Part shown: one piece after another, positions 8,901-32,671 of the stretch
How the letters are laid out: each line of letters starts with the position of its first letter
Position numbering within the stretch: the stretch's first letter is position 1
Assembly (NCBI GenBank): GCA_030617105.1
Contig: JAUWWC010000002.1
Span: 1 to 58,096, forward strand
Source: Candidatus Nealsonbacteria bacterium
GTDB lineage: Bacteria; Patescibacteriota; Minisyncoccia; Minisyncoccales; GWA2-38-27
DNA: 58,096 nucleotides
Direction: 5' to 3'
Notes under the pieces: model-generated
Databases searched by the model: none
Told to the model about the DNA's origin: nothing
What the model saw: the letters and a program-made list of their open reading frames with translations, nothing else
Position numbers and translations under genes: made by a program

Positions 8901-10124
8901 TTATTTTGATTTCTTCTCGACCTTTTCTTTTTTTGCTTTTGTTTTCTTCTCCTTCTTTTCTTCCTTTGGTTTTTCTTTCTTGCCCTTTTCCTCTTCTTCT
9001 TTTTTCTCTTCTCCTCCTTCTGCACTTCTTACATCTATTTTCCAACCAGTGAGTTTAGCTGCTAATCTCACATTCTGGCCCTCTTTACCAATAGCTAAAG
9101 ACAATTGGTCTTCAGGAACTAAGCAAAGGGCTTTGCCTTTTGGCATAATTTTTACTTCCAAAACCTTGGCTGGAGAAAGAGAGTTAGCAATAAATTCTTC
9201 TGAATTATCAGAATATTCAATAATATCAATCTTTTCTCCTCCTAACTCGTTTATTATTGCCATTACTCTTGTTCCGCGTTGTCCAACCGCACTCCCAATT
9301 GGATCAATACCTTCTTCTTTTGATTCTACAGCAATCTTTGAACGAGCACCTGGCTCTCTGGCGATTGATTTAATCACTACTTGACCTTGAGAAATCTCTG
9401 GAACTTCTAATTCAAAAAGCTTAGAAACTAATTTTGGATAAGCGCGGGATAAAAACACAGCAGGTCCTTTTGGAGTATCCTCAACTTTAAGAATGTAAAA
9501 CTTTAATCTCTGGCCTGGTTTATAGAATTCTGCAAAGATTTGCTCTTCTTTTGGCAAAATCCCTAATGTCTTTCCAATATCAACGAAGATATTTCTTCCT
9601 TCTACTCTCTGGATAATGCCAGAGACAATCTCTCCTTCTTTTGACTTGTACTCATCAAAGATTGTTTCTCTTTCTGCTTCTCTAATCTTCTGCAAAATCA
9701 CTTGCTTTGCTGTTTGAGCAGCTATACGGCCATAATCCTTTTTGGCTTGCAAAGGAAGCTCTAGTTCTTGTTCTGGTTTAATGCTTGATTTTTTCTTCTT
9801 TGCCTCCTTTAACATAATATGTCTTTCCGGGTTAAAACGGATTTTCCTGTCTTCTTCCTTTTCTTCTTTCTGCTCCTCTTTCAATTTCTCCAATTCCTGT
9901 TCAGAGTAAATCATATCTTCAGTAACCACTAACTTTATTTGCCAAAACTTAGCTTTTCCTGTTTTAGGATCAAGCTTTGCTTTAATGAGCTGGCCTTTTT
10001 CACCATAATCCTTTTTATAGGCAGCTGCTATTGCTGTTTCAATGCTCTCAATCACTTTTTCCGCAGCAATCCCCTTTTCTTCAGCAATTTGAGAAATCGC
10101 TGATGTAAAATTCTTCATGTCCAT
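8901..10124 (-). CDS. nusA: Transcription termination/antitermination factor NusA with a Lys/Glu-rich C-terminal tail
   Basis: N-terminal NusA domain, S1-like region (GEIVSGIIQRVE), two KH regions (IGSAVGQRGTRV; AIGKEGQNVRLA). Confidence 0.9.
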   Translation of the reverse strand: MDMKNFTSAISQIAEEKGIAAEKVIESIETAIAAAYKKDYGEKGQLIKAKLDPKTGKAKFWQIKLVVTEDMIYSEQELEKLKEEQKEEKEEDRKIRFNPERHIMLKEAKKKKSSIKPEQELELPLQAKKDYGRIAAQTAKQVILQKIREAERETIFDEYKSKEGEIVSGIIQRVEGRNIFVDIGKTLGILPKEEQIFAEFYKPGQRLKFYILKVEDTPKGPAVFLSRAYPKLVSKLFELEVPEISQGQVVIKSIAREPGARSKIAVESKEEGIDPIGSAVGQRGTRVMAIINELGGEKIDIIEYSDNSEEFIANSLSPAKVLEVKIMPKGKALCLVPEDQLSLAIGKEGQNVRLAAKLTGWKIDVRSAEGGEEKKEEEEKGKKEKPKEEKKEKKTKAKKEKVEKKSK

Positions 10125-10232
10125 AGTTTTAAAAAAGTCCGTTTTCCAACGGACAAATAATCATTATCTTCCTTACTAATTTCATCCTATCAAAACAGAA
10201 CTCTTTGTCAACCCCCATGAACTTCTTTTTGT

Positions 10233-10664
10233 TTAAAGAGTTAAGCTCCTTTTTAATTCTTTATGGAAATATTGAGAGAATTTTTTAATGTATTGTAAAT
10301 CTGTAGTATAGAAAAATCTTCTCTTGTTTTTGCTATCAACAGCAAAAAGTAGTTTTTTACCATCTATTAAAAGCATTCTTTTATAATTTTTGCTTTTTAC
10401 CAAAATACATTTATAATTATTGTCTCTTATTTTATGCCTTTTATTAAATCTTTTAAAATCAGCGACAGTTCCAAAAGCTAATCTTGTAATTCTTACTCCT
10501 TGTTTCATCTTTTTATCAAGCAAAAAAAAGTACTCTGAAGGAAGAGGACTCTCGATTTCTTCAGCTAAATCCATCGTAACTAACAGCTCTTGTTTAGCTG
10601 ATTTTACAATAGAGATTGCCTTTTGAAGAATATTCGATTGTTCTATTTCCTTAAGAGTACTCAT
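10233..10664 (-). CDS. Hypothetical protein, co-transcribed with the T-box-controlled gene
   Basis: Starts 4 nt after the stop of 10669-12117. No motif that I can name with confidence. Confidence 0.45.
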   Translation of the reverse strand: MSTLKEIEQSNILQKAISIVKSAKQELLVTMDLAEEIESPLPSEYFFLLDKKMKQGVRITRLAFGTVADFKRFNKRHKIRDNNYKCILVKSKNYKRMLLIDGKKLLFAVDSKNKRRFFYTTDLQYIKKFSQYFHKELKRSLTL

Positions 10665-10668
10665 ATTT

Positions 10669-12117
10669 TTATTTTACAAACATGAAGCGAAAAACATGAA
10701 GTCGTGGTCCACTATCGCTGGTAAGAATAAGATTTTGTGGACAAGCAGGAATTAAACGCAGCTTGATTTGTGGTATTCCATTATATCGTCCTATTCTTGT
10801 GTTAAGTATACGCCACGAATGTAGAGAACGACGGAAAATAGGAACTATCTCAAAATCAATATCTGCATTTATTATATCAGAATTAACACCATACCCACAA
10901 AGCAACTTTTCCAATCGATGCCATATCTTAAATACTGCATCATCGTTTTTAGGCATAGAACGAATAATATCTAAAAACTGATGATGATATTTAGATGGCA
11001 CCGTTACCTCTTGAAGTCCGGTAATATTCTGACATATCCTTTGAAAAAAGGGGTTTGGGTAAAATGTAAGCTCTTTGCTACAATGCTTATCAAAAACAAT
11101 TTTTGATTGTCCATCTTGATAATCAACATTCAAAAGAATCACTTTTTGACCAATAGGAATTCTATCGACCTGAGAAATAGAATATATATTTAATTCTACT
11201 CCGTGCCGACTTAATCCCTTTTTTAGGCTTTCCATCTCCATAAGCTCAAGAATATCTTCTTGGTTTTCTAATACTTGGTTGCGAGTAACTATCGCTATTT
11301 GTTTGCTATTAATATTGTCAACTAATACTCTACAAACAACCTTTTGAAGCGAACCAACTATTTTCTGAACTAATGGAAGAATTTTAGAAAAAGGGCTGTG
11401 AATTTCGTTCAAAAACATTCCTACGTCTGGACAATTAATTTGCTCAACTGTCACTGTTCCATCTGAAAGAATGAAAACGTCTGCCTGACAGTAAAGTAAA
11501 TTGTCTACTTGACAACATCCAGAATATTTTTTTTCCTCTTCGCTTGCTCTTTTAATAACGTCCTGAAGCAAAACATTTACTAAATTGCTTACACGTTTGA
11601 TTAAATCTTGACCAAAAACAATTTCCTTGTTCGGAAGTGCCGGTCTAATCAAAAAGAAAGGTGCTCGTCCTTTGTCTGCTCTTCTTGTGGATCCGATTCG
11701 CTGAAGCATCTCATCAACCTTTCTAAGATTAAATGCATTGAACTCTCTTTGAACCGATTCAACTATTTTTTGATCAGACAAATAGTAAGCTTCTGGAATA
11801 GCCAATCCTTCTTCTTTACAAATCTTTCTCACTGATAAGTCAGTGTTAGAATGATTCGGGTTTATATAAAATGGAAGAAAATTACCAGCCATTCCTTGAT
11901 CCGTTTTAAGAACAGGGCGATAGAAACCAACGCCTCTCATCATTTGTTTCAAATACGTGATATCGCTTGGAAAAAATGCCTCCAATAATTCTATCATGGG
12001 TTTTTTGCGAAGTTTCTTAAGCTCCGTATTTAATTCAACAACATCGTTTGTAACGTAAAGATGGTTTAAACCAACGCTCGCTGACTTAATCCTACCGCCA
12101 ATAGGCACTAATCTCAT
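10669..12117 (-). CDS. Hypothetical protein, possible ATP-grasp-superfamily amide ligase (glutathionylspermidine-synthase-like / circularly permuted type, tentative)
   Basis: ADVFILSDGTVTVEQINCPDVGMF resembles the Mg/ATP-binding strand-loop (..D...dG....E.N..P.) of ATP-grasp ligases. There is a strong SD (GAAGGGAG) 7 nt before the ATG. A T-box leader lies directly upstream. Confidence 0.35.
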   Translation of the reverse strand: MRLVPIGGRIKSASVGLNHLYVTNDVVELNTELKKLRKKPMIELLEAFFPSDITYLKQMMRGVGFYRPVLKTDQGMAGNFLPFYINPNHSNTDLSVRKICKEEGLAIPEAYYLSDQKIVESVQREFNAFNLRKVDEMLQRIGSTRRADKGRAPFFLIRPALPNKEIVFGQDLIKRVSNLVNVLLQDVIKRASEEEKKYSGCCQVDNLLYCQADVFILSDGTVTVEQINCPDVGMFLNEIHSPFSKILPLVQKIVGSLQKVVCRVLVDNINSKQIAIVTRNQVLENQEDILELMEMESLKKGLSRHGVELNIYSISQVDRIPIGQKVILLNVDYQDGQSKIVFDKHCSKELTFYPNPFFQRICQNITGLQEVTVPSKYHHQFLDIIRSMPKNDDAVFKIWHRLEKLLCGYGVNSDIINADIDFEIVPIFRRSLHSWRILNTRIGRYNGIPQIKLRLIPACPQNLILTSDSGPRLHVFRFMFVK

Positions 12118-12180
12118 TTTAAATCTCCCTTCATGTCTATATTTTGTTAATGTACTTTTCTAAAGAACAATTAAGAAGTA

Positions 12181-12416
12181 ATAAAAAACTTCTCATCTCT
12201 GGTATCTACTTAAAGTAAATAACAGGGACGAGAAGTTTCCCGCGGTGCCACCTTGATTTCCCGCCAAGGCGGGACTACTCACTGACTCAATTAAGAAGCA
12301 GTTATCCTCTGGTTACGGAGGAAGCCGGGCTTCCACTATTGCAGAAGCCATCTCCTCGGGCCCAACCTCTCGTTAAACGAGAGACCCGATTCATAGATTT
12401 TAGTAATTTTCAAAGA
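12181..12416 (-). promoter_or_regulatory. T-box riboswitch leader (tRNA-sensing transcription attenuator)
   Basis: Minus strand, in order: Stem-I-like hairpin GGCUUC-UGCAAUAGUG-GAAGCC (12349-12328); GUAACC; Stem III CCCGCC-UUG-GCGGG (12273-12260); T-box sequence AAAUCAAGGUGGCACCGCGGG (12259-12239); terminator arms AACUUCUCGUCCCUG (12237-12223) and CCAGAGAUGAGAAGUU (12202-12187); then UUUUUU. Confidence 0.8.
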
Positions 12417-12423
12417 TATTTCA

Positions 12424-12452
12424 ATAATAGCAAACCCAACAAGCTTGTCAAC
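12424..12452 (-). promoter_or_regulatory. Sigma70-like promoter of the T-box leader (TTGACA-N17-TATTAT)
   Basis: Consensus -35 at 12452-12447 and -10 at 12429-12424 on the minus strand, immediately after the receiver gene stop. Confidence 0.6.
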
Positions 12453-13669: not shown

Positions 13670-15022
13670 ATGTTTAAGAGTACAAAGGCAAGCTATGTTG
13701 GTTTTAAAGACATATTTGGCTATGAAGCAAGACTGCGCGAATTTATAACAGCTAAGATATCCGAAGTTTTTCAGCTTTGGGGATATGACAAAATCGAGCT
13801 TTCTGTTATTGAAAGCATGGATAGTTTCAATGAAAGAATAGTGGGTGGATCGCCGTGGCCCGAATGGAACCAAAAATGTTCCTTCCAAATAGACATTCTC
13901 GATTATGTAGACACGTATAACAGTAAACCTATGTCTAATCGGGCTCTGCTAGTGCCAGAAGGAACTATATCAATATCCCGCTGGTTGGCCAGCCAGATTG
14001 ACATAGGACAAGACTTGCAGGCTGGTTTTCCACTTAAGGTCTACTATGTAGTTAATTGTTTTCGCAATGAGCTTATAACAAACCTATCGGCAACCAAGAC
14101 CAGAAACTTCACACAGATAGGTACAGAAATTATTGGCACTTCGAACCATTATGCGAATCTCGAAACCATTATGTTAGTAACGAACGGACTGGAAACCCTT
14201 GGTGTGCCAAAGAATCATATTAAGATTCGGCTAAGCGATATTCGCATTTTTAATCATCTTTGTAAAAAATGTAAGATTCCCTACCAGGAAAGTATTATTC
14301 TTAAAGAGATATTTGATAGTATTGCCGAGTCACGTGCAAACAACGACGCTAAGCAACTGATCAACAGGCTTGCTAAGGCTAATAAGATTCTATCGGAGCA
14401 TGTGACAGACGTAAAGACTCAAAGTCAATGGGATTTCTGTCTTGCTGGAACCAAACAGTCAATAAATGATGAGGAAGCAATGTTTTTAGAGTGCTCAGAA
14501 ACAGTAAGTGATCTTAATTCTATTGTGAATGAACTCGGTAAACTAAACATTCCAGGGGTAATCGATCTCGCCGTGGTAAGAAGTCATGAATACTACACAG
14601 GCATCGTGTTCGAGATTGACGTCACGGTCGATGACCAGATTATAGTTGAAATTGCAGGTGGAGGCCGCTACAACAAACTTATTAGTAGATTATCCAAGAA
14701 AAATATTGAGGTTCCAGCCGTTGGATTTGCTTTCGGCTTGGAAAGAATTTGCCGTTTGGCGGAGAACTTACAGAAATCTACTAGCTTAGAAACTCGTTTT
14801 TGGCTCGATGAATCTCCAGTAGATATCGTCCTTTATGGCCATAAACCAGCACATCAACTGATTAAGTTAGCGCAACAACTGCGCAAAAACCATAAAAGAG
14901 TCGACATCTACGCGGGCGATAAACCTACCAGCCAAGAAATTAACATCTACGCAGTAAAGAAAAACGCAAAATTAATCCATATAAGAAATGAAAAACAAAC
15001 AACGAAAGGAGATACAATATGA
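13670..15022 (+). CDS. Divergent histidyl-tRNA synthetase-like class II aaRS paralog (HisS/HisZ family) with an anticodon-binding-like C-terminal domain
   Basis: LVPEGT, motif-2-like YYVVNCFRNE...TRNFTQIGTEIIG, HisA-like VVRSHEYYTG, HisB AGGGRYNKL, and FAFGLERI. Strong SD (AAAGGAG). Overlaps the radical SAM gene by 4 nt. Confidence 0.7.
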   Translation: MFKSTKASYVGFKDIFGYEARLREFITAKISEVFQLWGYDKIELSVIESMDSFNERIVGGSPWPEWNQKCSFQIDILDYVDTYNSKPMSNRALLVPEGTISISRWLASQIDIGQDLQAGFPLKVYYVVNCFRNELITNLSATKTRNFTQIGTEIIGTSNHYANLETIMLVTNGLETLGVPKNHIKIRLSDIRIFNHLCKKCKIPYQESIILKEIFDSIAESRANNDAKQLINRLAKANKILSEHVTDVKTQSQWDFCLAGTKQSINDEEAMFLECSETVSDLNSIVNELGKLNIPGVIDLAVVRSHEYYTGIVFEIDVTVDDQIIVEIAGGGRYNKLISRLSKKNIEVPAVGFAFGLERICRLAENLQKSTSLETRFWLDESPVDIVLYGHKPAHQLIKLAQQLRKNHKRVDIYAGDKPTSQEINIYAVKKNAKLIHIRNEKQTTKGDTI

Positions 15023-16449
15023 GCATTCCAAGTGTTTTATTGGTAAATCCACCAATGCTTTTAGAAAAGCCCGACTTCGGTCAGGCGGGCGCCTTATTTT
15101 CGCCAGAAAACCTAAAGATGGCCGCCATCAATCCTGGTTTACTCTCTATTGCTACCTACCTAGACGACAAAGGGATTCCGGTTGTTATCTGTGACCTTTC
15201 AATAACAGAAGATTTTAATGTTCTTCGTCAAATGATAGAAGACATTAAACCAGACGTCATCGGCGTCAGTTCCATGAGTGCTTTTGATTACATCGAGACG
15301 CTTAACTGTCTTAAAATTGCGCTCGAAGAAAGACCGCAAGCTTTGAGAGTAGCTGGCGGCCAACACATAGGAATGTTAGGCACTTCTGCTTTTGTCGATT
15401 CGCCTGAATTACAGGTTCTTGCAAAAGATGAAGGCGAAAAGGCGATGGAAAATATTGTCTCACACATTCAAGATAACCAACCGCTATCTGATATCGCTGG
15501 CATTATAGTCAGAGATGGTACAGAAATACATGACAACTCTGGTATCTCTGAATTAATGATCTTAGACAATATCCCTCCGCTTAAATACGAACTCTATCCT
15601 GAGTTCCGGCAATTTACGCCTTTCGTTGAAGAAAGTCGTGGTTGTCCGGCACGATGTGAGTATTGTACCAGTGTCAGAATGAATCATGGTAAAATCCGCT
15701 ATAAAACTACCGAACACTTTGAGGTTGAAATCAACCGCGCTATAGATCTTTGGGGCAAAGATCATATCTTTGCTATCCTGGCAGCGAGTTTTGGTATGAG
15801 ATCAAAGCCAACTCTTGAACTAGCGAAAGTGTTTAGTCGAACGAATGTGAGATGGACGACAGAATTTCGAGCCGATTGCAATTGGGAAGTTTATCTTGAC
15901 CAGCTATATGAAGCAGGACTTGTTGTCGTTAACGTAGGTATGGAATCGGCTAGTCCCGAGATCCTAATTAACATGAACAAAACTAAGAATCCGAAACATT
16001 ATCTTGCTAAAACGCGCGAACTGGTAAAACGAATTTCTCGAATGCCGAAGTTAGCACTCCGCATTAACGTAATTTTCTATGTCGGCGAAACACCAAAAAC
16101 AATAAAAGAAACGATATCTTTTCTGGTGGAAAATATATATGGAATCGACTCCATTCTTTATTCGCCGGTGTTTGTGACACCTGGTTCGGACTTGGAAAAA
16201 AACTTCCGTAGGTATGAAAAAAAGTACGGAGCACGGCTTATTTCTTCGCCTTATTGGGACCAAAGACGCCTGAAACTCTGTCAGCCATCCAAGTACTTCA
16301 GCTTTGAAGAAAGTGTTTATGTAAGTAACGCTCTCGAGAAAGTCTTTAGTACGCCCGAAGGATGGTTTGCCTCAGAGGCATACCATTATCGCCAAGATCA
16401 TAAAGAGCTTAAACAAACCTTGATTAGTGGCAGATATTCGGGCTCGTAA
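15019..16449 (+). CDS. B12-binding-domain radical SAM protein
   Basis: N-terminal Rossmann-like domain (VVICDL...PDVIGVSSMS) and radical SAM cluster motif CPARCEYC (CxxxCxxC). The ATGA overlap with the upstream gene indicates translational coupling. Confidence 0.85.
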   Translation: MSIPSVLLVNPPMLLEKPDFGQAGALFSPENLKMAAINPGLLSIATYLDDKGIPVVICDLSITEDFNVLRQMIEDIKPDVIGVSSMSAFDYIETLNCLKIALEERPQALRVAGGQHIGMLGTSAFVDSPELQVLAKDEGEKAMENIVSHIQDNQPLSDIAGIIVRDGTEIHDNSGISELMILDNIPPLKYELYPEFRQFTPFVEESRGCPARCEYCTSVRMNHGKIRYKTTEHFEVEINRAIDLWGKDHIFAILAASFGMRSKPTLELAKVFSRTNVRWTTEFRADCNWEVYLDQLYEAGLVVVNVGMESASPEILINMNKTKNPKHYLAKTRELVKRISRMPKLALRINVIFYVGETPKTIKETISFLVENIYGIDSILYSPVFVTPGSDLEKNFRRYEKKYGARLISSPYWDQRRLKLCQPSKYFSFEESVYVSNALEKVFSTPEGWFASEAYHYRQDHKELKQTLISGRYSGS

Positions 16450-32563: not shown

Positions 32564-32671
32564 GTTTTTTAATCATAGCAAATTTTTGGGAAAAAGAAAA
32601 CCCCAAACTAAAAATCAATAAACCGAGTCTATAGAATTCTATAAACTCGGTTTATTGATTTAGGCTAGTTT

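Follow-up and report, generated by a model that had tools for sequence, protein, structure and literature searches.

T-box leaders in front of genes of unknown function are not new in themselves. Wels et al. reported that 8% of T-boxes precede unknown or apparently unrelated genes (PMC2494555), and the T-box of Bacillus subtilis rtpA (anti-TRAP), which provides the tryptophan example, was first described in terms of 'genes of unknown function' sensing the charging of tRNA-Trp (PMC10327191; PMC2494555). Short forms of Stem I have been described as well, as the intermediate or 'ultrashort' Stem I of actinobacterial ileS T-boxes in Mycobacterium and Nocardia (Sherwood et al. 2015, reviewed in PMC7583486); the tRNA-elbow platform of Stem I (the interdigitated double T-loop motif, IDTM) is held to be generally essential in transcriptional T-boxes (PMC7583486). 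Here, we analyze a leader on the minus strand (12451..12183) of the Candidatus Nealsonbacteria contig JAUWWC010000002.1 (GCA_030617105.1), a stretch of 58,096 nt that we refer to as the window, together with the operon of two orphan genes behind it, which encode proteins of 482 and 143 amino acids (aa). We observe that the leader is a genuine T-box with a short Stem I, and that what is unusual is the combination of a short Stem I lacking the IDTM with an intrinsic terminator, seen in 15 leader copies. In our reading, to which we assign a probability of roughly 0.8, the region is a transcription-attenuating tRNA-Trp T-box, and the gene pair, part of a tryptophan-limitation regulon in Patescibacteria, has a functional tie to the tryptophanyl-tRNA synthetase (TrpRS).

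With respect to the ileS T-boxes, the present leaders are alike in having no distal IDTM, in keeping the K-turn, Stem II and the IIA/B pseudoknot, in sharing the same discriminator core, and in carrying the specifier in a side bulge or in an apical loop, both of which forms also occur here. The ileS T-boxes differ in that they are translational, sequester the Shine-Dalgarno sequence, are specific for Ile, and stand before an aminoacyl-tRNA synthetase (aaRS) gene, whereas the present leaders carry an intrinsic terminator with a U-tract, appear to be Trp-specific, are found in Patescibacteria, and stand before orphan genes. The rtpA T-box is similar in being transcriptional, in responding to uncharged tRNA-Trp through UGG, and in having a first gene that is not an aaRS, a biosynthetic enzyme, or a transporter (PMC10327191; PMC2494555), but it has a canonical long Stem I, is Firmicute-specific, and its cargo is a small zinc protein antagonizing TRAP, without relation to the 482-aa or the 143-aa protein. 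The canonical T-boxes of Firmicute trpS genes and trp operons (RF00230 seed type, Trp family of TBDB) share the UGG specifier, the UGGC/UGGU bulge opposite G73, and the terminator/antiterminator arrangement, and one related operon of the present family (locus L033) includes trpS; they differ in having a long Stem I with the IDTM and in scoring above the Rfam gathering threshold, while the window operon is without trpS. A full-text literature search of limited coverage turned up no paper in which T-boxes are connected to Patescibacteria or to the candidate phyla radiation (CPR).

A T-box leader with a short Stem I

A local search with the Rfam T-box model RF00230 matches the leader over the full model (positions 1-219) at 12403..12221 of the minus strand, with 62.0 bits and an E-value of 3.6e-13. 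Run on all 58 kb and both strands, the same model gives this match an E-value of 4.2e-11 and reports it as the sole T-box of the window. An earlier note, which had proposed a T-box with mutually exclusive antiterminator and terminator at this place and had named the RF00230 scan as a check, is thus supported by a highly significant E-value and by a conserved architecture, while the score stays under the curated gathering score that is weighed further below. The leader folds at -89.7 kcal/mol (z = -4.6, with 0 of 200 shuffles as good), and the terminator is the dominant element of that fold. Its elements are the following.

12451..12446, minus strand: -35 box TTGACA of a sigma-70-type promoter (11 of 12 consensus matches with the -10 box)
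12429..12424, minus strand: -10 box TATTAT, with TG just before it and a spacer of 16 nt
12397..12351, minus strand: short Stem I, from the RF00230 alignment and covariation
12397..12390, minus strand: 5' strand of the K-turn, UCUAUGAA
12355..12351, minus strand: 3' strand of the K-turn, GGAGA
12389..12385 with 12360..12356, minus strand: Stem I base helix of 5 bp, UCGGG/CCCGA
12383..12367, minus strand: Stem I distal hairpin of 6 bp with a UUUAA loop
12366..12361, minus strand: 3' side loop of Stem I, GUUGGG
12364..12362, minus strand: predicted specifier UGG (Trp), followed by the conserved 3' purine G12361, which abuts the 3' strand of the base helix
12349..12328, minus strand: Stem II, GGCUUC/GAAGCC, with a cap holding the invariant UGC...AGUG, aligned to Stem II of the model
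12327..12305, minus strand: Stem IIA hairpin (CGG..CCG), F-box and IIB pseudoknot, from the RF00230 alignment
12318..12313, minus strand: F-box CCGUAA
12322..12319 with 12308..12305, minus strand: IIB pseudoknot, UCCU with AGGA, followed by the invariant GAUAAC
12302..12281, minus strand: linker hairpin ACUG...CAGU, its position conserved in all leaders
12274..12259, minus strand: Stem III, UCCCGCC/GGCGGGA, followed by AA
12255..12223, minus strand: antiterminator, holding the T-box core AAGGUGGCACCGCG, from the RF00230 alignment
12250..12244, minus strand: T-box bulge UGGCACC, 7 nt
12235..12189, minus strand: terminator, an interrupted helix of 20 pairs, -22.3 kcal/mol
12188..12183, minus strand: terminator U-tract, U6
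12130..12125, minus strand: ribosome-binding site AGGGAG, 7 nt before the ATG

Much of the outline drawn in the earlier note is recognizable in this anatomy, namely the short Stem III, the T-box core within the antiterminator, and both promoter boxes, the latter separated by 16 nt and not by the 17 nt given there. Similar promoters (TTGACA/TAT(A/C)AT) lie upstream of the leaders in L035, L036, L027, L054, and L077, handles under which we list the loci of homologues. The hairpin with the AUAGUG loop, which had been taken for Stem I, must be reassigned, because the model aligns it to Stem II and because a covarying, K-turn-flanked hairpin lies upstream of it, still within the stretch that the note covers; this upstream hairpin carries the UGA/GA flanks of a Stem I founded on a K-turn. 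The 'GUAACC element' is likewise present as a sequence, its identity being the F-box CCGUAA of the Stem IIA/B pseudoknot. From Stem I the distal tRNA-elbow platform (the AG bulge and distal loop of the IDTM) is absent, 26 nt taking the place of 76 model positions. L027, L054, and L077 have no distal part of Stem I at all, and in L042 and L066 its length is arbitrary, while in the leader type of L038 and L041 the linker hairpin is the sole hairpin before the T-box.

The antiterminator, whose helix A2 is closed by G12243.U12228, shares its 3' half with the 5' arm of the terminator (overlap 12235..12223), so that the alternative terminator helix with U6 that had been predicted is found as an interrupted helix of 20 pairs. 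The ribosome-binding site lies 52 nt (12182..12131) past the U-tract and takes part in neither of the alternative folds, and for this reason we regard the switch as transcriptional.

Leaders were sought by nhmmer with the window leader and by a pattern for the T-box core in 26 loci taken from GTDB genomes, in 44 metagenome loci, and in the contigs of single homologues. Leaders on the same strand before a homologue of the 482-aa protein were found in L027, L028/L037, L033, L035, L036, L038, L039, L041/L042, L045, L054, L058, L066, and L077, giving, together with the window, 14 unique loci and 15 leader copies (L041 and L042 being near-identical); the proteins behind the homologous leaders are 34-89% identical to the 482-aa protein of the window. 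RF00230 matches 8 of the 11 leaders that were scanned (E-values of 8e-13 to 4e-4, 35-69 bits), always over the full model and always with the same Stem I deletion; over all scans the scores of homologous leaders range from 32 to 69 bits. A covariance model of our own, R1, built from seven leaders and reaching from Stem I to Stem IIA, recovered 5 leaders outside its seed and nothing in other loci. None of the 26 loci from GTDB genomes was found to have a T-box; these are linked to TrpR or trpS, belong to a Gemmatimonadota branch, or are without a tryptophan signal. In the specific case of a 93%-identical homologue (L029-L032), an LMWPc-like open reading frame (ORF) lies directly upstream and the contig extends at most 277 nt beyond the gene start; a T-box may lie further upstream, as it does in L027.

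Standard pairs fill 98.7% of cells in the R1 alignment, and compensatory changes, affecting both sides, are seen at 15 of the 22 pairs, compared to 37-51% paired cells and 1-4 such pairs in a control in which the 3' partners were slid by 1-3 columns. These figures lean towards the structure, the alignment being fitted to the model, and the compensatory changes are also visible in the raw MAFFT alignment, which was dropped for the pair counts and realigned with R1 because in two helices it set the two sub-classes a column apart. The changes are widely distributed throughout the leader: in Stem I, where 100% of cells are paired, all 5 pairs of the base helix and 5 of the 6 pairs of the distal helix change on both sides, as do 4 of 6 pairs in Stem II, and the IIA/B pseudoknot shows 95.8% paired cells with covariation at 2 of its 4 pairs, the window type having UCCU:AGGA and the L038 type UCUC:GAGA. 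The F-box reads CCGU(A/U)A in all 14 leaders whose upstream part was covered, and the bulge reads UGGCACC in 13 of 15 copies, UGGUACC in L033, and UGGCAAC in L028. Furthermore, a terminator of -22 to -36 kcal/mol with a U-run is present in all 15 copies, each overlapping the 3' strand of the antiterminator, so that the alternative of the two structures is conserved across the homologous loci. A chance origin of the T-box resemblance is ruled out by this conservation, the covariation, and the shared terminator overlap. We also observe that the leaders of L028 (bulge at L028:3910-3921) and L058 carry an extra hairpin between Stem I and Stem II.

Specifier and discriminator

UGG is the single tryptophan codon. 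Bacterial tRNA-Trp carries G73; the discriminator is A73 in tRNAs for Leu and Val and U73 in those for Gly (bacterial identity sets). Comparative folding, which the earlier note had suggested as the way to the specifier loop, leads to UGG at 12364..12362: the 3' side loop is GUUGGG in every leader with a side bulge (AUUGGG in L033), the leaders without a distal hairpin carry the apical loops AGAAUGGG (L027, L054) and AGUUUGGG (L077), and UGG followed by G is the only triplet common to the side-bulge and apical-loop variants in one register. In the '+0' frame of TBDB a single nucleotide of the bulge follows the specifier (PMC7778990), and the UGG register in GUUGGG agrees with this frame. The candidates offered previously, GAU-A and AAC in GGAUAAC, fall in the 3' strand of the pseudoknot and the invariant GAUAAC and were therefore rejected as specifiers.

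The discriminator points in the same direction. The variable position of the bulge is C in 14 of 15 copies, which pairs with G73, and U in L033. Trp T-boxes in TBDB have C or U at this position, 46% of them U opposite G73 as a G.U wobble (PMC7778990). A tRNA with discriminator G73 had been predicted from the UGGC bulge, and Trp was on the list of amino acids given for it. By comparison of the loops and of the bulge, the specifier is therefore predicted to be UGG and the ligand to be tRNA-Trp, which would bind the leader and, in this organism, would carry G73.

The loop GUUGGG also holds UUG, GGG, and GUU, and the T-box could accordingly be one for Leu, Gly, or Val; the 5' U facing the loop could pair with its last G and shift the register by one, and frames of -1 and +1 are considered by TBDB as well (PMC7778990). 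Yet UUG and GUU are absent from AGAAUGGG, and only UGG(G) is common to all loops, including AGUUUGGG. The bulge, C in nearly all copies with a C/U mix over the family, follows a known Trp pattern (PMC7778990), and one triplet that is absolutely conserved despite protein identities of 34-100% fits an amino acid with a single codon. In addition, the linkage to TrpR and trpS described below indicates Trp independently. UUG, GGG, and GUU were therefore rejected as specifiers on the register across loop variants and on the discriminator base, and we regard a T-box for another amino acid as highly improbable.

Tryptophan-linked gene context and the proposed switch

The operon downstream of the leader is made up as follows.

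12117..10669, minus strand: 482-aa orphan protein, first gene of the operon
10664..10233, minus strand: 143-aa partner protein
10154..10131, minus strand: terminator-like hairpin with U6, 79 nt after the partner stop codon, the probable end of the operon

Gene context was surveyed by tblastn over all loci, de-duplicated to 60 unique loci. A partner of about 140 aa follows the 482-aa gene in 39 of these, a TrpR-family gene lies directly upstream in 19, trpS is adjacent in 16, and a T-box leader is present in 14; at least one of the three tryptophan signals is found in 37 loci, and T-box and TrpR never occur together (0/60). The TrpR-family genes match PF01371 and also TIGR01321, the latter at an E-value of 4e-11 but short of the cutoff score of that model, while the trpS genes reach 283 and 276 bits with TIGR00233, against a cutoff of 177. 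Most often trpS comes immediately behind the partner, its start codon overlapping the stop codon of the latter, or the order is trpS, TrpR, homologue, partner; in L033, whose protein is 61% identical to that of the window, we find T-box, homologue, partner, and trpS. The cargo had been described as a pair free of aaRS, biosynthesis, and transporter genes. This holds for the window, where TyrRS is the only class-Ic synthetase and trpS does not occur within the 58 kb, and it needs the qualification that in relatives the pair is often co-operonic with trpS. Two unrelated tryptophan sensors and recurrent membership in trpS operons independently confirm the UGG reading, and it is because TrpR or a T-box guards the pair, together with the trpS linkage, that we place the pair in a tryptophan-limitation regulon. 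The idea that the pair replaces TrpRS was rejected, a normal trpS being adjacent in 16 loci, and that of a defense system was discarded in view of the lack of a PADLOC match.

Several observations weigh against this reading. At the Rfam gathering score of 93 bits RF00230 is not reported, and only tRNAs pass there in the window; the 62 bits fall short of 93 because of the 50-nt deletion in distal Stem I. Helix A1 of the antiterminator, CAAGG/CCCUG, contains one A.C mismatch, and with the IDTM absent from a leader of the terminator type, function might be weak or need a helper. In addition, UUG and GGG lie one nucleotide away from the predicted specifier, and no tRNA-Trp gene was found, either in the 81 fetched loci or in the window, whose 7 tRNAs are those for Pro, Gly, Ala, Pro, Arg, and Lys plus one odd tRNA. 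Finally, 23 of the 60 loci are without a tryptophan signal, nine of them in the Gemmatimonadota branch and several others on incomplete contigs; many contigs are short, so that the absence of T-box, TrpR, or trpS at a locus is weak evidence.

The sub-threshold score, the A.C mismatch, and the loss of a platform called essential in transcriptional T-boxes (PMC7583486) would also suit a decayed relic that no longer switches, whose terminator would be constitutive or would be read through regardless of tRNA charging. Such decay is at odds with the near-complete pairing, the 15 compensatory pairs, the invariant specifier loop, F-box, and bulge, and the overlapping terminator, all kept over 14 diverged loci. 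Stem II and the IIA/B pseudoknot have been retained too, and these form the module that replaces the platform in ileS T-boxes lacking the IDTM (PMC7583486). The mutual exclusivity of TrpR and T-box further suggests that both regulators do one job. We consider a relic very unlikely and keep to a functional tRNA-Trp T-box.

Such a switch may work as follows. Transcription would start about 7 nt past the -10 box, and the nascent leader would fold the short, K-turn-based Stem I, in whose side loop the CCA anticodon of tRNA-Trp would find UGG and the following purine. The anticodon contact would be reinforced by Stem II together with the IIA/B pseudoknot, which would make up for the lack of an elbow platform in the way known from ileS T-boxes that are without one. 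When tRNA-Trp is uncharged, its 3' end G73-C-C-A would pair with UGGC of the bulge (12250..12247) and stabilize the antiterminator, and RNA polymerase would read into the two-gene operon; when tRNA-Trp is charged, the antiterminator would go unstabilized, the terminator with its U6 would form, and transcription would stop. This direction of regulation, with uncharged tRNA as the 'on' state, is the one we infer. The products of the operon would then act on the supply of Trp or on the charging of tRNA-Trp, together with TrpRS.

Other genes recur around the pair, either between T-box and 482-aa gene or just after the pair, and may belong to the same pathway: an AstE/AspA-type deacylase in 9 loci and a gene resembling low-molecular-weight (LMW) phosphatases in 3 loci. 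The LMW-phosphatase-like protein has a CX5R(S) loop (L027:4457-4981, L029:2-202, L032:1-276, L043:2394-2906). To the same set of genes belong a 305-aa protein without a family (L028:4067-4984) and a conserved ORF of about 98 aa starting MRFLLCG (L058:2680-2979, L066:2679-2975).

Another conserved non-coding element, roughly 150 nt long, was seen in L041 (1505-1658), L042 (964-1117), L066 (2502-2647), and L043 (62-214), 30-60 nt upstream of the 482-aa homologue or, in L066, of the 98-aa ORF, and in L041 and L066 about 700 nt downstream of the T-box terminator. Between L041 and L066 its DNA is 86% identical, and no reading frame is exempt from the conservation. The fold has an energy of -62 kcal/mol (z = -5.5) and contains the long-range pairs CUCAACAUCCC/GGGAUGUUGAG and GGAAGACUC/GAGUCUUCC, with GAGUCUUCC/GGAAGGCUC as a possible alternative pair. 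The element has no Rfam match and is absent from the window and the other loci; it may be a further switch in tandem with the T-box, confined to a small clade.

At the far end of the operon, a promoter-like TTGACA-16-TAGGAT lies at 10211..10184 on the minus strand, in the gap that separates the 143-aa gene from nusA, whose start is at 10124. The hairpin at 10154..10131 has 7 GC-rich bp and stands 7 nt (given as 10130..10125) before the nusA start codon, and it may be the operon terminator or a leader attenuator of nusA.

The protein pair and its possible role

The two proteins had been described as unknown, and neither has a Pfam or NCBIfam family. In the specific case of the 482-aa protein, no match was found in Pfam, NCBIfam, PADLOC, or the PDB sequences, searched with the single sequence and with a profile, and none of 35 aligned family members matches Pfam even at E <= 10. 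About 85 homologues are known, none of them named and most of patescibacterial origin; when 1.84 billion representatives were searched exhaustively with a profile, 95 proteins were returned, all of them family members or fragments. Residues invariant in the 482-aa protein are K11, K71, Q74, E109, R145, R151, D213, D231, R279, D288, E291, E294, N330, and R477. The AlphaFold2 model is of high confidence (predicted local distance difference test, pLDDT, 92.5; predicted TM-score, pTM, 0.91). Its top PDB neighbors in Foldseek are NisB, MadB, MibB, and the TbtB glutamylation domain (E-values of 4.5e-7 to 9e-3, TMq 0.32-0.49, root-mean-square deviation (RMSD) of 11-21 A), and eukaryotic glutathione synthetase (E-value of about 5e-6, TMq 0.30-0.32); a viral structure library gave no match.

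The LanB/PEARL enzymes (NisB 4WD9, MibB 5EHK, TbtB 6EC7) and glutathione synthetase (2HGS) are thus the best structural neighbors, and both ligate amino acids, LanB using aminoacyl-tRNA. The 482-aa protein has half the size of LanB, and the likeness in fold is modest and without a sequence relation. Lant_dehydr_N (PF04738) has no match in the window protein nor in the 35 members at E <= 10, and the Pfam ATP-grasp and GSH_synth models have none to the 482-aa protein; by inspection, a stretch E-x-x-N-x-P-D-V-G loosely recalls the ExN motif of ATP-grasp enzymes. Because the RMSD exceeds 10 A and a sequence signal is lacking, we take both likenesses as leads suggested by the models and not as memberships.

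The 143-aa partner forms a family of 54 proteins, as narrow as that of the 482-aa protein, with weak matches to Pfam Regulator_TrmB and NCBIfam NucT. Its AlphaFold2 model (pLDDT 90.6) has a phospholipase D (PLD) fold, with NucT (6ehi_B) at an E-value of 1.5e-8 and TMq of 0.71; NucT, the TrmBL2 C-domain, and Zucchini lie at E-values of 1e-8 to 1e-7 and TMq of about 0.7, and PLD2/3/4 also match. Like other PLD domains (NucT 6EHI, the TrmBL2 C-domain 5BPD, Zucchini, and the DUF1669 domain of FAM83; E-values of 1e-8 to 1e-6, TMq 0.63-0.73), the partner consists of a single domain with this fold, but it has YxRx4D in place of HxKx4D and no DNA-binding winged helix-turn-helix, unlike TrmB, and it always stands alone, with about 140 aa, after the 482-aa gene. 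Where the catalytic HxKx4D (HKD) motif is expected, Y94-x-R96-x4-D101 is invariant over 14+14 sequences, and no conserved His or Lys is found at those positions in the same set; the equivalence of the two motifs is drawn from spacing and fold, not from superposition. Judged by its fold and these residues, the 143-aa protein is probably a non-canonical, ligand-binding subunit.

Homologues of about 30% identity in Longimicrobium and other Gemmatimonadota occur without partner, trpS, or TrpR. One homologue of this branch adjoins a C-A-T module of a nonribosomal peptide synthetase (NRPS; L025:58-3936), and another is surrounded by genes for an aminotransferase, an Asp/Glu racemase, and a P450 (L015:2300-9526). 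Neighbors of these kinds fit ligase- or transfer-type chemistry, and this natural-product-like context may reveal the ancestral chemistry of the family.

Natural-product clusters with tRNA-dependent enzymes often hold an aaRS gene. A T-box for Trp might control a consumer of Trp-tRNA-Trp and not a supplier, namely a LanB/PEARL-like enzyme transferring Trp to a peptide or small molecule and standing beside trpS for its substrate, with the tRNA-dependent glutamylation domains as best structural neighbors and the NRPS module, P450, aminotransferase, and racemase beside the distant Longimicrobium homologues pointing the same way. The regulatory logic is the wrong one for such an enzyme, since it would be induced by uncharged tRNA through the T-box or by low Trp through TrpR. 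The 35 family members give no Lant_dehydr_N signal, the TM-scores are modest (0.49 and 0.3) at an RMSD above 10 A, and a conserved gene for a precursor peptide was not seen; the genomes of CPR bacteria are minimal, and the neighboring trpS has the look of the housekeeping type. We hold a consumer to be unlikely, and prefer a pair that, as we infer, acts on Trp or tRNA-Trp when tryptophan is limiting.

As to chemistry, an enzyme of the ligase or aminoacyl-transfer type, accompanied by a PLD-like subunit that binds a ligand and is not catalytic, is a tentative proposal that we offer with some doubt. A further step, speculative and doubtful as it stands, is that the pair constitutes an unrecognized Patescibacteria enzyme system acting with TrpRS on Trp or tRNA-Trp, and that its leader is a transcriptional T-box functioning without an elbow platform. 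It could, for example, be a LanB/ATP-grasp-like ligase by which, when the tRNA is uncharged, Trp-tRNA-Trp is made, rescued, or repaired, or Trp is liberated or activated. If true, a TrpRS-linked system of this kind would explain both the two different tryptophan sensors and the frequent translational coupling to trpS.

Three further features of the window were recorded. At 26376-26451 on the plus strand, a tRNA-like gene lies right after tRNA-Arg(TCG), for which ARAGORN gives a four-base anticodon 'attt' and the amino acid '???'. In Rfam it reaches 53 bits with the tRNA model and, alternatively, 34 bits as a fragment of a tmRNA, and its anticodon arm CCUUCC-UAUUUA-GGAAGG would lead to a 6-nt loop. 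An atypical tRNA-Lys(UUU), a tRNA of the frameshift type, and an error of assembly are the possible explanations. A 450-aa HisRS-like class II synthetase paralogue is encoded at 13670-15022 (plus strand), under both curated cutoffs (hisS 198 versus 287 bits, hisZ 153 versus 272 bits), with an ORF at 15019-16449 overlapping the end of its gene; it may be a genuine HisRS, a regulator like HisZ, or something else. A perfect-looking palindromic hairpin at 32609-32664 weakly matches, on both strands, the plant miRNA family mir-9424, its 37 bits being far under the gathering score; most likely it terminates transcription in both directions between two convergent genes.

With respect to T-box biology, terminator-type leaders without the IDTM are probably under-counted, because they fall below the Rfam gathering threshold, and they provide a natural test of the need for the elbow contact in co-transcriptional sensing. 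The specifier makes an anonymous gene pair tryptophan-linked and gives a handle on an orphan family without sequence relatives, and the likeness in fold to tRNA-dependent LanB enzymes makes tRNA-linked chemistry testable. CPR bacteria have a minimal metabolism and rely on hosts for amino acids. The presence in them of a conserved, tightly regulated, trpS-coupled module suggests a new step in securing charged tRNA-Trp in these bacteria.

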